In this document: piece after piece, positions 5,571 through 39,086 of the stretch
How the letters are laid out: every line of letters starts with the position of its first letter
Numbering within the stretch: position 1 is the first letter of the stretch
NCBI GenBank assembly: GCA_024398595.1
Contig: JAKSIX010000001.1
Span: forward strand, 9,873-73,872
Reading direction: 5' to 3'
Source of the DNA: Bacteroidaceae bacterium
GTDB taxonomy: Bacteria; Bacteroidota; Bacteroidia; Bacteroidales; Bacteroidaceae
Length of the DNA: 64,000 bases
The notes under the pieces: model-generated
Told to the model about the DNA's origin: nothing
The model's input: the letters and a program-made list of their open reading frames with translations, nothing else
Databases searched by the model: none
Made by a program: the position numbers and the translations under genes

Positions 5571-7294
5571 TCAAACACTGTTTTATTTCCACCAACAATA
5601 TAAGCCTTACCCCTTGTAGGAAAATGCGGATGTCTGCCGGACATATCAACTACGTCACCGCCATTCCAATCAATCACATCGTCCTGGGCTATCATGCCGA
5701 CAGCTGATTCCACCTCGCCCTGAACAACAGGTATCTCCACTATCTTTCCGAAAAGTTCAAGTTCCACTGTTCCCTGCCGGCCCTTAATGCCTGCCGGCAG
5801 AGGTTCGCCGCCTATGAACACATTTATCTGGCCATACTCAATATATTCATCAGAAATTTTCTTTACACTTATCCAACTCTCGTCCTCATCCAGAAATACA
5901 TTCCAGTTCTTTGCGGAATCCAACGTCAGAATCGCATAATCCTCATACCATTTCTTTTCGACATCATCATATATGGTCATGGTCTTCCTGCCGTCTTCGG
6001 AGATACGCACCACTACATCCTTCATCTCATCTACCACCTCAGCAACCGGAAGTGCACCATAAAAAGATATGAAGAAGCTTGACCATGGATAATAACCGAA
6101 TGTCTCAAACGACCCGTCATCAAGCAAAGCGTACGCATTGCCATTATAGAATTTCTCATCGGCAAACGGGCAATACCATTTCGAACCAAGCCTGTCAAAT
6201 CCCGATATTACAACCATGTAATCATATTCCCCATCCAGAACTATTGGAGCCTCAGTATATTGGAAAATCGGATCATAATCCATGAATCTGAAATTCACCG
6301 AGCAATACACATCGTTATATTCGTTCCTGCTCAATGTTACGTCCTCATCAACAGCAAATGCCTCAGCTACGACAGTGAAGCCATTTTCATCAAATCTCTG
6401 CACACTGGCAAACAAGGTATCACCCTCCAACGGTTTCCTGTCACTGTATTTTCCACCGGCCTTGGAGAGTATCAGCTTTATGCTGACTGATTCCGCATAC
6501 AGCAAATCACCCGGAGCGGAGAAGTACTCGGCAAAACCTACACACTTCTTGCCGGTATTCATTACCCGAGTCTTACCGGATTCATCTTCAACAAAAATAG
6601 AGAAATCCGCATTTGACTCGTAGTTCAAGCCACTGCCATAACCGACCCAAATGGAATCCATCGGATTTGCATTCCCCAGATGTACAAGGCCCTCACTTCC
6701 TCCGCGCCATAACGGTCCGGAACCTTCCTCAACATCCTCAGTATCGGCGTGGTACTGATATGAGGCCAGAGCTTTTACGTGTTTTTTATCTTCAGGGGCA
6801 TACACGTGAATATATGGTGTATTCTTGATGCCAAACAGGGATTCATACAAATCTCCATACCTATTTACCACTCCGGGAGCCCTGATTTCCTTAGCTACCC
6901 CATCTTCATACACCATTTCCGTCCATTCCACACTATCCCTCAAGGCCAGTTTACCGTCCAGCATGGAACAATTCTGCCAGTACACCTCCACCATGCCGGG
7001 TGTATATACTCTACTGTTATTCCACGCCAGCCAGTCTTGGTCCATACCTTCAACAAATGCATTGTAAGGTCTGTCATACCAGGCCTCGGCTTCCGGTGCT
7101 GCAGTTCCTGCAAGCATCACTCTTTCAGCATACAGGGAACGGGACATCTGCGGAATACGCTCCACACGCATGGAATTGACATCAACCACATTGTTTATCT
7201 GAGATTCTGTCTTATACATTACCCTATTGAACTGCGCATGGACGGTCACAGTTCCGCATAACACCGCCAAAATAAAAAAGAACTTTCTTATCAT
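5567..7294 (-). CDS. Secreted hypothetical protein, possibly with a BACON-like domain near the C-terminus
   Basis: Long ORF with signal peptide MIRKFFFILAVLCGTVTVHAQ, translationally coupled to the C10 peptidase gene. No catalytic motif recognised. The segment WISVKK...GRQGTVELELFGKIVEIPVVQG resembles BACON domains. Confidence 0.5.
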   Translation of the reverse strand: MIRKFFFILAVLCGTVTVHAQFNRVMYKTESQINNVVDVNSMRVERIPQMSRSLYAERVMLAGTAAPEAEAWYDRPYNAFVEGMDQDWLAWNNSRVYTPGMVEVYWQNCSMLDGKLALRDSVEWTEMVYEDGVAKEIRAPGVVNRYGDLYESLFGIKNTPYIHVYAPEDKKHVKALASYQYHADTEDVEEGSGPLWRGGSEGLVHLGNANPMDSIWVGYGSGLNYESNADFSIFVEDESGKTRVMNTGKKCVGFAEYFSAPGDLLYAESVSIKLILSKAGGKYSDRKPLEGDTLFASVQRFDENGFTVVAEAFAVDEDVTLSRNEYNDVYCSVNFRFMDYDPIFQYTEAPIVLDGEYDYMVVISGFDRLGSKWYCPFADEKFYNGNAYALLDDGSFETFGYYPWSSFFISFYGALPVAEVVDEMKDVVVRISEDGRKTMTIYDDVEKKWYEDYAILTLDSAKNWNVFLDEDESWISVKKISDEYIEYGQINVFIGGEPLPAGIKGRQGTVELELFGKIVEIPVVQGEVESAVGMIAQDDVIDWNGGDVVDMSGRHPHFPTRGKAYIVGGNKTVFE

Positions 7295-7304
7295 ATACTA
7301 TCTG

Positions 7305-8657
7305 TCATTTTTCAATATCAAACCTGAACCAAATACTATCACCCGCCTGATTCCACTTGAGACTGTTCAGACAGAAACAGGATTTGACGCTGCAAATGGA
7401 ATAATCCCCCGCTACAGCTTTCAACAGTTCGTCAAAAGCCGTGAACACGGAAAGCACGCTCTCCGACTGACTGCCCACAGGGACAGGATTCTTCATACTC
7501 ACCACACCGGAACCAACTGAATAGTCATAATCATAGCGGACTTTTATTCTGGTGTTCCTGTTTTTCCGGAATGTGACATCCACACTCAGTATTGCATCTT
7601 CTGACTGCGCATCGTGAATAGTGCAGTACCACGACTCCAACTCATACTTATCCCTCTGTGCCGCCATCTGCGACAGCAGACGCTTGTATATACTGTACAG
7701 TTGCGCACACATTGCGTCCTCCGAGAGTTTCATTGACCATCCCAAGCCGTTTCTGACCGTTTCGTCAAAAAAAGCCACGGCATCAGGAGCCTTCAATGTC
7801 ACTTTCCCAAAGTTATCTCCAGCCGCAAAACAATTTCTGTCCGGATCAAACACAAGTTCCTGAACATCGTCCGCACCAAGATGCAGCACATCGCGGAAAC
7901 GCAGATGATACCCGTCTTTATGCAACGTAATCAGATATGGAGCACGTTTTTCATTGGCCACCGGGTCACCGTCCACAGGATAGATATTCGGTATTCCGCC
8001 ACTTATACTATCCACACGATACACGGCATTCCCGGTACTCAGCAGATTGTAATTCACTGCATCATACGGGAACAGCGAATCTTTGAACGCTTCTACCCCG
8101 TCTATATATCTCTCATGATTGCCTTCCGCCAGCTGGGACATCCTCACATACACGCCTCTTTTCTTGCCTTTCATCATAACAGAACGGGATTCTGTAGCAG
8201 TGTCTGCAAGCACGAACTCATAGTCACCACCCATTCCCGTACCAAGTTCCCGATACGACGGATCTGAAAAACGATGAAGACAGCTGTTATAAGTCGGAAA
8301 CGACAGCACCGGTCCGTTATCCTTTCTTATCTCCCATACAGAAGTGTCCCTGAGTGCTTTATAATCTGATGCACTGTTTTTCATAGTCATCACAGCCGAC
8401 CCGTCATTCATGAAATCAAGCACTATCAGATACCCTCTGCCGGTTGTATGATTCACCGAGTTGGTCGGATAATATTCCATCACCCATCCCTCCGGCGATG
8501 ATGTGAGATATGCAGAATAGTCAGACACAGCCCTGTCAATACGCTCGGCGGCAGTAAGCGTAAAAAGGCTGTCAACCTCGTGACTGCACGCAGCCGTAAT
8601 GGCGGAAACAATCAGGCAGACAAGCCAAGAACAGATGTTATTCCGATATTTTCCCAT
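7305..8657 (-). CDS. Lipoprotein, DUF4302-like (the usual partner of the SusCD-associated zinc metallohydrolase lipoprotein)
   Basis: Start trimmed to the ATG at 8657 (MGKYRNNICSWLVCLIVSAITAAC, with lipobox Cys). The family call rests on position downstream of the HEXXH lipoprotein and is made from memory. Confidence 0.5.
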   Translation of the reverse strand: MGKYRNNICSWLVCLIVSAITAACSHEVDSLFTLTAAERIDRAVSDYSAYLTSSPEGWVMEYYPTNSVNHTTGRGYLIVLDFMNDGSAVMTMKNSASDYKALRDTSVWEIRKDNGPVLSFPTYNSCLHRFSDPSYRELGTGMGGDYEFVLADTATESRSVMMKGKKRGVYVRMSQLAEGNHERYIDGVEAFKDSLFPYDAVNYNLLSTGNAVYRVDSISGGIPNIYPVDGDPVANEKRAPYLITLHKDGYHLRFRDVLHLGADDVQELVFDPDRNCFAAGDNFGKVTLKAPDAVAFFDETVRNGLGWSMKLSEDAMCAQLYSIYKRLLSQMAAQRDKYELESWYCTIHDAQSEDAILSVDVTFRKNRNTRIKVRYDYDYSVGSGVVSMKNPVPVGSQSESVLSVFTAFDELLKAVAGDYSICSVKSCFCLNSLKWNQAGDSIWFRFDIEK

Positions 8658-25052: not shown

Positions 25053-25131
25053 GTAAAAGGTTATACTATATCCGCTTTTATTGACAACATTTTTACCATT
25101 CAAGAATATAGCCTTGAAATCAGCAGGATAA

Positions 25132-25180
25132 TAATCTGTTTTGAAATGTTCCAATTAATCGAACATTTCAAAAGAGATTC
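25132..25180 (+). repeat. Arms-only (49-bp) derivative of the 164-bp hairpin element
   Basis: tAATCTGTTTTGAAATGTTCCAATTAATCGAACATTTCAAAAGAGATTC is the left arm joined directly to the right arm of the full element. Perfect 13-bp stem 25139-25151/25161-25173 with a 9-nt loop. TAA on both sides (25129-25131 and 25181-25183). Confidence 0.85.
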
Positions 25181-25183
25181 TAA

Positions 25184-25347
25184 GAAGTTGTTTAAATTTG
25201 TTCGATTAAAAATTTTATGAAGGATTTTCGAGATGAAAAATCCGCTTGTTTGAAGGAGTGATGGGGTTCCATCATGACTGAAAAGAAACGGATTTTCAGC
25301 CGGAAAGACTTTATAAAAGATTAATTGGAATAAATTTAAACAGCTTC
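25184..25347 (+). repeat. Long-hairpin intergenic element, copy 1 (MITE/Correia-like)
   Basis: Near-identical to 28265-28427 and 38915-39078. Terminal inverted arms GAAGTTGTTTAAATTTGTTCGATTAA / TTAATTGGAATAAATTTAAACAGCTTC. Flanked by TAA on both sides. Its last base plus the flanking TA form the uvrA stop codon. Confidence 0.9.
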
Positions 25348-28196
25348 TAATATATGTCAGTGAAATATCTGGACCGCAAAACGCGTCCTGTATAAGATTC
25401 AGCACAAGCCGCCACCTGTTCCGGTGTACCACAGACTACCACATTGCCACCCTTATCACCACCTTCAGGCCCCAAATCTATCACATGGTCGGCACACTTT
25501 ATCACCTCCATATTGTGTTCAATGACAATTACCGTATGCCCGCGCCGTATAAGTGCATTGAAGGCATCAAGCAGCTTGCGTATATCGTGGAAATGGAGCC
25601 CCGTGGTAGGCTCATCGAATATGAATACAGTCGGTTCGGTCTTTTCTATACTCAGATAATACGCCAGTTTCACGCGCTGACTCTCGCCACCCGACAATGT
25701 CGATGATGACTGCCCGAGTTTGACATAGCCCAGTCCAACCTGCTGCAACGGGCGCAGACGGCGGACAATACGCTTTTCCTCCGCACCGTCGGACTCCCCG
25801 AAGAACTCTATCGCCTGATTGACCGTCATTTCCAATATGTCCCAGATATTCCTGTCCCGGTATGTCACATCCAGAACATCCTTCTTGAAGCGTTTGCCAT
25901 GACAGCTCTCACATTCCAGCACCAGATCGGACATAAATTGCATTGACACGACAGTAGTTCCCTCCCCCTTGCATTCCTCACAGCGTCCGCCCTCCGAATT
26001 GAAAGAGAAATGGGTAGCCTTGAATCCCATCTGGCGTGATACCTGCTGGTCTGCGAACAGTTTCCTTATCTCATCGTACGCCTTGACGTATGTGACAGGA
26101 TTGGAACGCGAAGACCTGCCTATAGGATTCTGATCCACAAACTCCACGCCCGACACCATACGCAGGTCACCATCTATAGAGCGGAATTCACCCGGCCGTT
26201 CTCCGACTTCATCGTAAAGCCTCTTCAGACCGAGATACAGCACATCACGCACCAGAGTACTCTTGCCGGAACCGCTCACACCAGTAACCACGGTCAGCAC
26301 ATTCAGCGGGAATTTCACATCTATGCAGCGCAGGTTATTGTGACAGGCGCCCTTGACTTCTATATAATTGTTCCACGGCCGTCTGGAAGAAGGCAGCGGT
26401 ATCTGCTCCCTACCGCTGAGATACCCGGCGGTATAGCCCACACCACTCGCACAGATTTCATCGGGCGAGCCCATACTGACTATCTCTCCCCCATTCCGAC
26501 CGGCTTCCGGCCCCACATCTATGACCACATCCGCAGCACGGATAATATCCTCATCGTGCTCCACAACAATCACGGTGTTGCCAATCTGCTGCAACTGCCT
26601 CAAGACTGCCGTAAGACGGGCCGTATCGCGGCTGTGAAGTCCTATGCTCGGTTCGTCCAATACATACAGTGAGCCCACCAGACTGCTCCCTAAGGATGTG
26701 ACCAGATTGATACGCTGGCTCTCACCGCCCGACAGGGTATTGCTCAGCCTGTTCAGAGTCAGATACTCCAGCCCTACATCTATCAGCAAATCTATGCGAT
26801 GCCTTATCTCGTGCAACAGACGCTCAGCAGTCAGAGCATCATATTCATCCAGTTCCAGAGTATCAAAGAATGATTTCAGTTCCAATATCGGCAAATCCAC
26901 CAGATCCAATATGGACTTGCCACCAACCTTGACATACGATGCCTCCTTGCGCAGTCTCTTGCCATGGCATTCCGGGCAAACGGTCTTTCCGCGATAGCGT
27001 GCCAGCATCACTCTGTTCTGAATCTTGTACTGATTATGCTCCAGCATTCTGAAGAAATTGTCAATACAGCACTCCGGCCATTCCTCACCGTTGACGGTTA
27101 TAGTCTTGCCTGTGCCGTGCCACAGATAATCCTTCTCCTGCTGTGTCAGCTGGTAATAAGGGGTGAATATCGGAAATCCGTGCTTCTCTGCCTCCAGAAT
27201 GAAATAGTTGAGCCATTCGCCGAGCTTATCTCCACGCCAGCATACAACCGCCCCGTCATACACGCTCAGACTCTTGTCCGGGACGACAAGTTCCTCGTCT
27301 ATACCGACAATGCGTCCGAATCCTTCACATACAGGGCACGCCCCCATCGGCGAATTGAACGAGAACAGCTTGTCCGACGGCTCCTCAAACTTTATGCCGT
27401 CCGCCTCGAAATGGTAGCTGAATGTCTTCAGCGTAGTTTCCGGACAATCATATATACGCAGCATACATACGCCCTTGCCCTCGTAGAAAGCCGTTTCCGC
27501 AGAATCAGCCAGACGGTCAGTCACTTCCTGAGAGACGTCAGCCGAAAGCCTGTCAATAAGCAGGCATACGGGACTCGCGTCATTCTCCACCTCCTTCAGA
27601 CGGTGTCCGTCCTTCAGCACATCCTCTATGCGGATGAATTCGCCGTTACAGTCAAGTCTCGTGAAACCCTCCTTCATACAAGTCTCCAACTGTTCGCGGA
27701 AAGTACGTCCTCCCGAAACCTGCAATGGTGCAATCAAGGCAATACGGGTACCCTTTGGCAACTCACATACGCACTGAATCAGATCCTCCGTACTGTGCTT
27801 TCTCACAATATCGCCGCTGACCGGAGAATATGTCCTGCCTATACGCGCGAACAGAAGCCTCATATAATCGTATATTTCGGTAGATGTGCCTACCGTAGAT
27901 CTTGAATTCCGCGTAGTGACTTTCTGTTCGATGGCTATTGTGGGAGGCAGGCCGGCAATAGAGTCGCACTCCGGTTTTTTCATACGTCCCAGAAACTGAC
28001 GCGCATACGATGACAGGGACTCTACATAGCGCCGCTGTCCTTCCGCATACAGAGTGTCAAACGCAAGCGATGACTTGCCGGATCCTGACAGTCCCGTAAT
28101 AACGATGAACCTGTCACGCGGAATATCCAGCGAGACACCCTTCAGATTGTTGACTCTGGCATTCCGTATCTCAATGAGCCCGTCAGTATCACCCAT
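25347..28196 (-). CDS. uvrA: Excinuclease ABC subunit UvrA
   Basis: Two ABC modules (Walker A GLSGSGKSS and GVSGSGKST; signature LSGGESQR twice). Zinc modules CPVCEGFG, CPECHGKR, CEECKGEG and CESCHGKRF. The ORF-track start at 28226 is a TTG, so I trimmed to the ATG at 28196 (MGDTDGLIEIRNARVNNLKG). Confidence 0.93.
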   Translation of the reverse strand: MGDTDGLIEIRNARVNNLKGVSLDIPRDRFIVITGLSGSGKSSLAFDTLYAEGQRRYVESLSSYARQFLGRMKKPECDSIAGLPPTIAIEQKVTTRNSRSTVGTSTEIYDYMRLLFARIGRTYSPVSGDIVRKHSTEDLIQCVCELPKGTRIALIAPLQVSGGRTFREQLETCMKEGFTRLDCNGEFIRIEDVLKDGHRLKEVENDASPVCLLIDRLSADVSQEVTDRLADSAETAFYEGKGVCMLRIYDCPETTLKTFSYHFEADGIKFEEPSDKLFSFNSPMGACPVCEGFGRIVGIDEELVVPDKSLSVYDGAVVCWRGDKLGEWLNYFILEAEKHGFPIFTPYYQLTQQEKDYLWHGTGKTITVNGEEWPECCIDNFFRMLEHNQYKIQNRVMLARYRGKTVCPECHGKRLRKEASYVKVGGKSILDLVDLPILELKSFFDTLELDEYDALTAERLLHEIRHRIDLLIDVGLEYLTLNRLSNTLSGGESQRINLVTSLGSSLVGSLYVLDEPSIGLHSRDTARLTAVLRQLQQIGNTVIVVEHDEDIIRAADVVIDVGPEAGRNGGEIVSMGSPDEICASGVGYTAGYLSGREQIPLPSSRRPWNNYIEVKGACHNNLRCIDVKFPLNVLTVVTGVSGSGKSTLVRDVLYLGLKRLYDEVGERPGEFRSIDGDLRMVSGVEFVDQNPIGRSSRSNPVTYVKAYDEIRKLFADQQVSRQMGFKATHFSFNSEGGRCEECKGEGTTVVSMQFMSDLVLECESCHGKRFKKDVLDVTYRDRNIWDILEMTVNQAIEFFGESDGAEEKRIVRRLRPLQQVGLGYVKLGQSSSTLSGGESQRVKLAYYLSIEKTEPTVFIFDEPTTGLHFHDIRKLLDAFNALIRRGHTVIVIEHNMEVIKCADHVIDLGPEGGDKGGNVVVCGTPEQVAACAESYTGRVLRSRYFTDIY

Positions 28197-28264: not shown

Positions 28265-28427
28265 GAAGCTGTTTTGAAATGTCCGATTAAAAATTTTATG
28301 AAGGATTTTTGAGATGAGAATCCGCTTGTTTGAAGGAGTGATGGGGTTCCATCATGACTGAAAAGAAACGGATTTTCAGCCGGAAAGACTTTATAAAAGA
28401 TTAATTGGAACATTTCAAAACAGATTC
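28265..28427 (+). repeat. Long-hairpin intergenic element, copy 2
   Basis: Same core as copies 1 and 3. Arms GAAGCTGTTTTGAAATGTCCGATTAA / TTAATTGGAACATTTCAAAACAGATTC. TAA at 28262-28264 and 28428-28430. Sits in the divergent uvrA / ABC-importer promoter region. Confidence 0.9.
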
Positions 28428-32840: not shown

Positions 32841-32858
32841 AGAACCTGTTTTGAAATG
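32841..32858 (+). repeat. Solo left-arm fragment of the hairpin element
   Basis: AGAACCTGTTTTGAAATG matches the element left arm AGAATCTGTTTTGAAATG at 17 of 18 positions. No matching right arm is nearby. Confidence 0.6.
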
Positions 32859-32915
32859 GTTTACTGCCTCAGCATCAATCCGCAACATTCACAATTACAT
32901 CACCCTATTCAACAG

Positions 32916-38914: not shown

Positions 38915-39078
38915 GAATCTGTTTGAATTTGTTCAATTAAAAATTTTATGAAGGATTTTCGAGATGGAAATCCGTTTGTTTGAAGGAGTGATGGGGTTCC
39001 ATCATGACTGAAAAGAAACGGATTTTTCAGCCGGAAAGACTTTATAAAAGATTAATTGGAACATTTCAAAACAGATTC
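38915..39078 (+). repeat. Long-hairpin intergenic element, copy 3
   Basis: Same core as copies 1 and 2. Arms GAATCTGTTTGAATTTGTTCAATTAA / TTAATTGGAACATTTCAAAACAGATTC. Left flank GTA, right flank TAA. Sits in the divergent nifJ / purN intergenic region. Confidence 0.9.
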
Positions 39079-39086
39079 TAACTTTG
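39079..39086 (+). promoter_or_regulatory. Candidate -7 box (TAnnTTTG) for purN, formed at the element/flank junction
   Basis: TAACTTTG: the TAA is the element's right flank. It lies 29 nt upstream of the ATG at 39115. Confidence 0.4.

Follow-up and report, generated by a model that had tools for sequence, protein, structure and literature searches.

The 64,000-nucleotide stretch of Bacteroidaceae DNA analysed here (the window) contains three copies of a long hairpin repeat in the same orientation. This raises the question of what kind of element they represent and how it came to be dispersed. A sequence-only reading had taken the copies for a MITE-like mobile hairpin, and the inverted repeats, 3-bp duplication, lack of coding content, dispersed copies and empty sites described below all agree with that proposal. 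We conclude that the element is very probably a MITE, a non-autonomous DNA transposon measuring 163-164 bp, which is moved in trans and carries a hairpin as passenger. The MITE is previously undescribed and has moved recently in uncultured gut or rumen Bacteroidales.

The element and its parts occupy the following positions in the window. The state of the orthologous site is given for the sister-species MAG JAZRYP01 (JAZRYP), which has about 90% nucleotide identity to the window.

25132-25180, minus strand: arms-only mini element of 49 bp, two arms joined at a shared TTAA, no core
25184-25347, plus strand: MITE copy 1, arm subfamily B; orthologous JAZRYP site without a copy
25252-25296, plus strand: invariant apical 45-mer of copy 1; apex stem GUGAUGG-GGUU-CCAUCAU, bounded on either side by internal loops
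28265-28427, plus strand: MITE copy 2, arm subfamily A; orthologous JAZRYP site without a copy
28332-28376, plus strand: invariant apical 45-mer of copy 2
32842-32861, plus strand: possible solitary arm remnant GAACCTGTTTTGAAATGGTT, 17/20 arm bases, intergenic; uncertain, either a remnant or chance
38915-39078, plus strand: MITE copy 3, an older insertion common to JAZRYP (L007/L029)
38982-39026, plus strand: invariant apical 45-mer of copy 3

All three bodies proposed before were recovered on the plus strand; the earlier list had, however, overlooked the mini element at 25132-25180. Each copy begins with GAAG and ends with CTTC, homology extending from GAAGCTG to CAGCTTC. For comparison, 32 copies were aligned (three from the window, 28 from the MAG JAZRYP01 and one from JAZUEH). 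The terminal inverted repeats measure 26-27 bp and fall into two subfamilies, represented by TTTTGAAATGTTC/GAACATTTCAAAA in copies 2 and 3 (subfamily A) and by TTTAAATTTGTTC/GAATAAATTTAAA in copy 1 (subfamily B). The differences between A and B are compensating changes. Arms of about 26 nt, as previously described, are present throughout, but copy 1 carries a variant arm pair. The right arm recurs, with an inverted occurrence at 25132-25158. Between the arms, the interior of about 110 bp forms a long imperfect hairpin with a highly conserved apex, whose 45 nt are identical in 3/3 window copies (chance expectation 0). When folded as plus-strand RNA, copy 2 reached -75.8 kcal/mol (z = -11.8 versus dinucleotide shuffles), which bears out the imperfect palindrome that had been described from end to end of each copy. 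The apical stem with its GGTT loop, likewise predicted, appears in the fold as GUGAUGG-GGUU-CCAUCAU. Copy 1 together with its upstream neighbour, folded as DNA, gave z = -10.2 versus shuffles.

The ORF check agreed with the claim that no ORF explains the element, whose coding capacity is limited to peptides of 6-16 codons. A coding role was rejected, as the small ORFs MGFHHD* and MTEKKRIFSRKDFIKD* are not conserved in the homologous leader hairpins described below. The solitary arm-like 20-mer at 32842-32861 was unsupported by nhmmer. Two truncated copies (L004 and L011) are explained by simple deletion and contain no interrupting IS.

Directly outside both element ends lies a T-N-A triplet, and the 3-bp duplication matches in 9/13 complete copies (five with TAA/TAA, three with TTA/TTA and one with TCA/TCA). 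The flanking TNA triplets are direct, not inverted, repeats and are therefore target-site duplications outside the palindrome. In the window they are located as follows.

25129-25131: left target duplication of the mini element, TAA, matching the TAA at 25181-25183
25181-25183: TAA common to the mini element (right duplication) and copy 1 (left duplication)
25348-25350: right target duplication of copy 1, TAA
28262-28264: left target duplication of copy 2, TAA
28428-28430: right target duplication of copy 2, TAA
38912-38914: left target duplication of copy 3, decayed, GTA; CAA in the orthologous JAZRYP copy
39079-39081: right target duplication of copy 3, TAA

Comparison with JAZRYP contig 35 (L047) demonstrated mobility directly by filled and empty sites. 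This contig covers the orthologous uvrA region, with proteins about 88-99% and DNA about 90-92% identical. At the copy 2 site, the window reads GGACAT-TAA-MITE-TAA-AGCCAAATG; the empty JAZRYP site has a single TAA and reads CAGCCC-TAA-AGCCAAATC (in short form CCC-TAA-AGCCAAAT). At the copy 1 site, the window has the mini element followed by TAA-MITE-TAA-TATATGTC (flank also written as TATATGTCAGTG), and JAZRYP has the mini element followed by TAA-TACATGTC (also written as TACATGTCGGTG). Copies 1 and 2 are therefore precise insertions that duplicated TAA, and no copy was found around uvrA in relatives whose UvrA is 81-82% identical. Copy 3 occupies the same place upstream of purN in the window and in JAZRYP, and its decayed left duplication is expected of an older insertion. 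The sites compared thus comprise the polymorphism among relatives that had been proposed as a check (copies 1 and 2) and one shared insertion (copy 3). Since copy 3 is shared and copies 1 and 2 are missing from the JAZRYP sites, the element was active both before and after the species split. Next to the shared copy, JAZRYP carries an extra gene (L007 2823-4040, minus strand) for a 405-aa AAA-ATPase-like protein, which is not in the window and lies between a pyruvate:ferredoxin oxidoreductase-like gene and the MITE.

The mini element adjoining copy 1 is oriented opposite to it and is flanked by TAA on both sides. It is also present at the orthologous JAZRYP site (L047 about 7851-7903) and hence predates copy 1. 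Its centre is inverted between the two species (CCAATTAATCG in the window, CGATTAATTGG in JAZRYP), which suggests either a flip-flop inversion by arm recombination or excision followed by re-insertion. A second mini element, a 40-bp arms-only hairpin with TAA/TAA flanks, was found at L045 9915-9954. This locus is an unrelated ENA metagenome contig, FLNX01002828.1, indicating that the arm sequence circulates beyond the two species compared. Judging from such TAA-flanked elements without a core, transposition probably requires no more than the arms.

The search for further copies in related genomes, which had been suggested, yielded dozens of dispersed ones. BLAST and nhmmer detected 29 related copies outside the window, 84-97% identical to copy 2. 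In a one-genome-per-species GTDB set, the 22-mer of the apex occurred at 31 loci, 26 of them in the MAG JAZRYP01, where many lie exactly at contig ends. Such a position is what a repeat that interrupts assembly at k = 141 should show. JAZRYP01, assembly GCA_045600825.1 and labelled 'Bacteroidaceae bacterium' at NCBI, holds about 19-27 copies, a range because a copy at a contig break can show on two contigs. JAZUEH holds one copy (L027 3221-3385, minus strand), which is 84% identical, has a TTA/TTA duplication and lies 14 nt from a cobalamin riboswitch (RF00174, 94 bits; L027 3399-3594, plus strand). The density in the window is three copies and one mini element per 64 kb. Short-read contigs from other samples that encode PurN or UvrA proteins identical to those of the window start or stop inside the element. 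The window UvrA clusters with the named member MCQ2073589.1 from a Bacteroidaceae MAG, and the window PurN is recorded in GCA_024500545.1.

The expectation that no described family would match was upheld. Rfam 15 gave no hit on the window at gathering thresholds; when E-values were relaxed, the only matches were to generic hairpin (microRNA precursor) models and far below threshold. A literature search for MITEs in Bacteroidales returned Porphyromonas gingivalis only. Neither the whole element nor the arm or the apex matched plasmids, phages or viral contigs (noise at E = 4). Scanning of JGI metagenomes with a 20-nt arm produced nine hits, among them five inside ORFs (chance), the true mini element of L045, and two intergenic arm-like ends (L043 and L044) with too little interior to judge; the scan returned no full MITE and no parent IS.

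How the element moves can be outlined from its ends. A DDE transposase whose gene lies at another genomic location would bind the terminal inverted repeats (GAAGCTGTTTTGAAATGTTCGATTAA ... TTAATTGGAACATTTCAAAACAGMTTC, 20-27 bp), excise the element and insert it at T-N-A triplets, which would thereby become duplicated on both sides. The arms would serve as transposition signals, with the interior of about 110 bp as passenger. Surviving insertions are intergenic, the majority of them within divergent promoter regions or precisely at stop codons. A 3-bp TNA duplication combined with short inverted repeats is the signature of DDE transposases of the IS5-family (IS1031/IS427-group) and PIF/Harbinger type. 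A 3-nt insertion site is described as common to the IS1031 group of the IS5 family (PMC2516522). From the TNA duplication alone we infer an IS5/Harbinger-type DDE enzyme, as no autonomous IS with matching arms was found. A parent IS should carry GAAKYTGTTTWRAWWTRTTC at its ends, and none with matching arms was detected in the window, in about 360 kb of related loci, or in the plasmids, phages and viral contigs. Repeated proteins among the examined loci, used as a proxy for transposases, were orthologues and one periplasmic-binding-protein paralogue pair only. The palindrome covers the whole element, and its least variable part is the interior apex and not the arms, which makes the MITE unlike a simple deletion derivative of an IS.

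Genes flanking the element are unrelated from copy to copy. Where both neighbours were visible, 7/10 copies lay in divergent promoter regions; other copies are placed right at stop codons. Copy 2 separates uvrA from an ABC-transporter fusion gene in such a divergent region, and copy 3 ends 36 nt upstream of purN. The description of all copies as intergenic requires one correction, since the final nucleotide of copy 1 (25347) also belongs to the uvrA stop codon, of which it is the first base in plus-strand order. The TAG stop of uvrA (25347-28196, minus strand) reads CTA at 25347-25349 on the plus strand and consists of two bases of the duplicated TAA and the terminal base of the element. In JAZRYP the uvrA stop is likewise part-element, its terminal base being provided by the mini element. 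UvrA comprises 949 aa in the window versus 943-945 aa in element-free relatives. With its stop built from element and TAA, the C-terminus of UvrA was redefined by an ancestral insertion.

Several copies abut sequences resembling the Bacteroidetes -7 promoter box.

39079-39086, plus strand: match to the -7 box, TAACTTTG (TAnnTTTG), formed by the duplicated TAA and its flank, 29 nt upstream of the purN ATG
L008 about 6560-6745, L006 about 5590 and L005 about 1835: -7 box matches abutting element ends

TAnnTTTG was found within 0-5 nt of the element end in window copy 3, on both sides of L008b, in L006 and in L005a. In these copies the -33 position lies within arm sequence, with ATTG suitably spaced from the box, so that the arms of some copies may occupy the expected position of the -33 promoter element of the neighbouring gene. 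The motif match suggests promoter activity of the element-abutting boxes. Compared with JAZRYP, 25 nt are deleted in the window at the purN-side box TAACTTTG, which arose after this loss. The left arm of subfamily B contains a perfect -7 box that faces inward, TAAATTTG, at element positions 9-16 (window 25192-25199); this box does not occur in subfamily A. By its sequence, this box could drive transcription of the plus-strand hairpin.

Orientation of the copies relative to genes is not random, counter to the prediction for symmetric cut-and-paste transposition. Copies facing the 3' end of a gene are antisense to it in 13/16 cases, and in 9/10 when within 25 nt of the stop codon. Local GC skew is negative in the element frame at 21/32 loci. 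Each of the three copies in the window is located on the C-rich strand. Candidate explanations for the bias are selection against a stable plus-strand duplex in mRNA 3' ends or against hairpin extrusion on the lagging-strand template. Stop-codon context was dismissed as the cause: both element ends show the incoming gene the same first 20 nt or so, and a by-eye frame analysis would favour the opposite orientation.

Two explanations other than a transposase-moved MITE were weighed against these data. A hairpin doublet of the REP/REPIN type, which is recognised in single-stranded form and dispersed by a RAYT (Y1/HUH) transposase, would also be a long intergenic hairpin, and both the strand-asymmetric pairing described below and the GC-skew-linked orientation could fit a single-strand mechanism. 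However, the present element has clear terminal inverted repeats and a 3-bp direct duplication created by precise TAA-duplicating insertions, whereas movement of the RAYT and IS200/IS605 type leaves no target duplication. Moreover, a RAYT gene was not seen in the loci examined. With terminal inverted repeats and target duplication present, the element is not a REPIN, and we regard this origin as highly improbable. Equally remote is the chance that the element is a palindrome with a cis-regulatory role in the host (for example an operator, a terminator or a REP-like hairpin that stabilises mRNA) which was duplicated together with neighbouring genes and is not mobile. The near-promoter placement and the -7 boxes abutting the element in several copies would suit it, but the neighbours are unrelated across copies, and the empty orthologous sites in the sister species refute it as the origin. 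In addition, copies adjoin 5' as well as 3' gene ends, and the element lacks an intrinsic-terminator signature; a role as intrinsic terminator was separately rejected for want of any terminator-like site. A secondary regulatory effect of the MITE on host genes is possible.

The passenger hairpin deserves separate consideration, as its two strands are not equivalent. In 12/12 complete copies the plus-strand RNA folded 12-28 kcal/mol better than the minus strand, and the consensus energies were -67.3 (plus) versus -32.0 kcal/mol (minus). Pooling pairs predicted on either strand, which avoids single-strand folding bias, we counted the stem positions that are not Watson-Crick: 21 pairs are G·U on the plus strand and seven on the minus strand (binomial p = 0.0125). 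In eight pairs both partners differ among copies, one example being a G-C to A-U change private to L012. Variable columns are rarer in the apex (4/39) than elsewhere (42/127; Fisher p = 0.004, approximate because copies share descent), and the arms are among the more variable parts. The apex motif GA(A/G)GGAGUGAUGGGGUUCCAUCAUGAC(U/C)GA is almost invariant in about 30 MITE copies. An apical stretch, UGAAGGAGUGAUGG (e.g. window 28330-28343), lacks a single G to be fully complementary to the 3' tail of 16S rRNA (AAGGAGGUGAUC). Its counterpart in the leader hairpins is GAGGGAGUGAUGG, and the resemblance may be coincidence.

A homologue of this hairpin without arms was found in the leaders of tRNA-Leu(UAA). 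The MAGs RUG11955, RUG476, JAZSKR and JAZSLV each contain the 22-mer once, in a hairpin of about 110 nt located between a conserved Bacteroidetes-type promoter (TTTG...TACTTTTG) and the tRNA gene.

L018 1385-1497: armless leader hairpin
L024 about 6928-7040: armless leader hairpin
L003 4928-5036: armless leader hairpin
L031 5151-5259, minus strand: armless leader hairpin

The 22-nt centre of the apex is identical in these armless insertions of other genera, and in nhmmer the MITE profile aligned with up to 70 nt of the leader hairpins (E = 2.6e-8 to 3.7e-6). A single secondary structure, 96.8% paired, is common to the MITE cores and the leader hairpins. In this joint structure 12/28 pairs are changed on both sides, compared with 6.4 +/- 1.5 in shuffles (0/500 reach 12) and at most six in slid controls. 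Across lineages with 80-87% identity in the flanking DNA, the central 75 nt of the leader hairpin have kept about 96% identity since insertion, and the outer stems have changed with compensation. Tandem arrangements occur, with one full and one partial hairpin in L003 and two hairpins in L031. Rfam found nothing relevant on the tRNA-Leu leader loci at either threshold setting. Capture of an ancient conserved leader hairpin by the MITE was ruled out by four syntenic relatives (L051-L054; esterase - promoter - tRNA-Leu - DUF3108), which have the same promoter, a leader of about 10-30 nt and no hairpin. The leader hairpin is thus itself an insertion.

From these data the element could be viewed as mainly a dispersed structured-RNA module (a small RNA, a site for RNase III or other processing, or a protein-binding hairpin) selected on the plus transcript, a reading that is compatible with the MITE and would make transposition its mode of spread only. 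It would account for the better plus-strand folding of every complete copy, the G·U excess, the pairs changed on both sides and the low variability of the apex. The armless homologues in four other MAGs add the conserved leader centre and a common structure with compensatory changes above shuffles; within a leader, the hairpin is necessarily part of the transcript, in the plus sense. On the other side, the element has no internal promoter or terminator except the -7-like TAAATTTG of subfamily B, and the majority of copies are situated either upstream of promoters or in antisense to the neighbouring gene, so that read-through would rarely give plus-strand RNA. Furthermore, pairs persist in palindromic DNA of any kind and the copies have a common ancestry, and covariation counts therefore overstate independent events. 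On balance we consider an element that is mainly an RNA module possible, if doubtful. That the passenger hairpin is a functional RNA module spread by transposition, with the apex perhaps a host-protein binding site or an RNase processing signal, is likewise a tentative and rather unlikely proposition. The main case for selection on the hairpin, probably as RNA, is made by leader conservation together with the invariant MITE apex. If transcribed, the element would form an RNA duplex of roughly -70 kcal/mol, which could affect mRNA processing or stability.

As a non-autonomous transposon, the element represents a mobile family new to this Bacteroidales group and a concrete cause of fragmented short-read assemblies in this uncultured clade. 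Two of the three window copies postdate the split from a species of about 90% identity, which offers insertion-polymorphism markers for strain tracking. With copies placed against -7 boxes and stop codons, and a uvrA stop that is part-element, expression of neighbouring genes may be altered. Should the hairpin be a functional module, each insertion would deliver a ready-made post-transcriptional or, via the arms, transcriptional control element to nearby genes. If the apex works as RNA, the MITE would clearly exemplify, in bacteria, the spread of a structured RNA module by a transposon.

Several known systems resemble the element in part. The IS200/IS605-derived palindromic elements (PATE) have subterminal hairpins and no terminal inverted repeats or duplication, and insert 3' of a fixed tetra- or pentanucleotide; the present MITE differs by its terminal inverted repeats and TNA duplication. 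ERIC/IRU sequences of enterobacteria are imperfect palindromes of about 127-170 bp, located in intergenic or transcribed DNA, in which RNA folding and gene-relative orientation matter, but they belong to another phylum and differ in sequence and target. To our knowledge, ERIC mobility has never been shown by clean pairs of filled and empty sites of the kind described above. The MITEs of Porphyromonas gingivalis (e.g. MITEPgRS) belong to hosts of another Bacteroidales family, and nothing in the present data points to a relationship. Correia elements of Neisseria (CREE/NEMIS) duplicate TA, have a consensus with an IHF site, and give rise to hairpin transcripts that are RNase III substrates. They share with the present element the build of a MITE of 100-160 bp with terminal inverted repeats of about 26 bp and a hairpin from end to end, as well as many intergenic near-promoter copies whose ends abut or create promoter boxes. 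In contrast, the duplication is TNA instead of TA and the hosts are Bacteroidales MAGs and not Neisseria; the element is therefore not a Correia element, and we know of no sequence similarity between the two. The earlier comparison with Correia and REPIN sequences accordingly stands as an analogy but fails as membership, on duplication and phylum for the former and on inverted repeats and target duplication for the latter. Tourist-type MITEs and the IS5-family and PIF/Harbinger elements are characterised by TNA/TWA duplication, short inverted repeats starting with GA or GG and non-autonomous copies moved in trans. The present MITE shares the 3-bp TNA duplication and short inverted repeats that start with GA, but its palindrome runs over the full length and includes a conserved passenger hairpin, and it is not an obvious derivative of an IS by internal deletion. 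By analogy, it resembles the Correia elements in its behaviour, as a promoter-adjacent MITE hairpin whose transcript can form a long duplex, and, by its duplication, an IS5/Harbinger-type 'Tourist-like' MITE.
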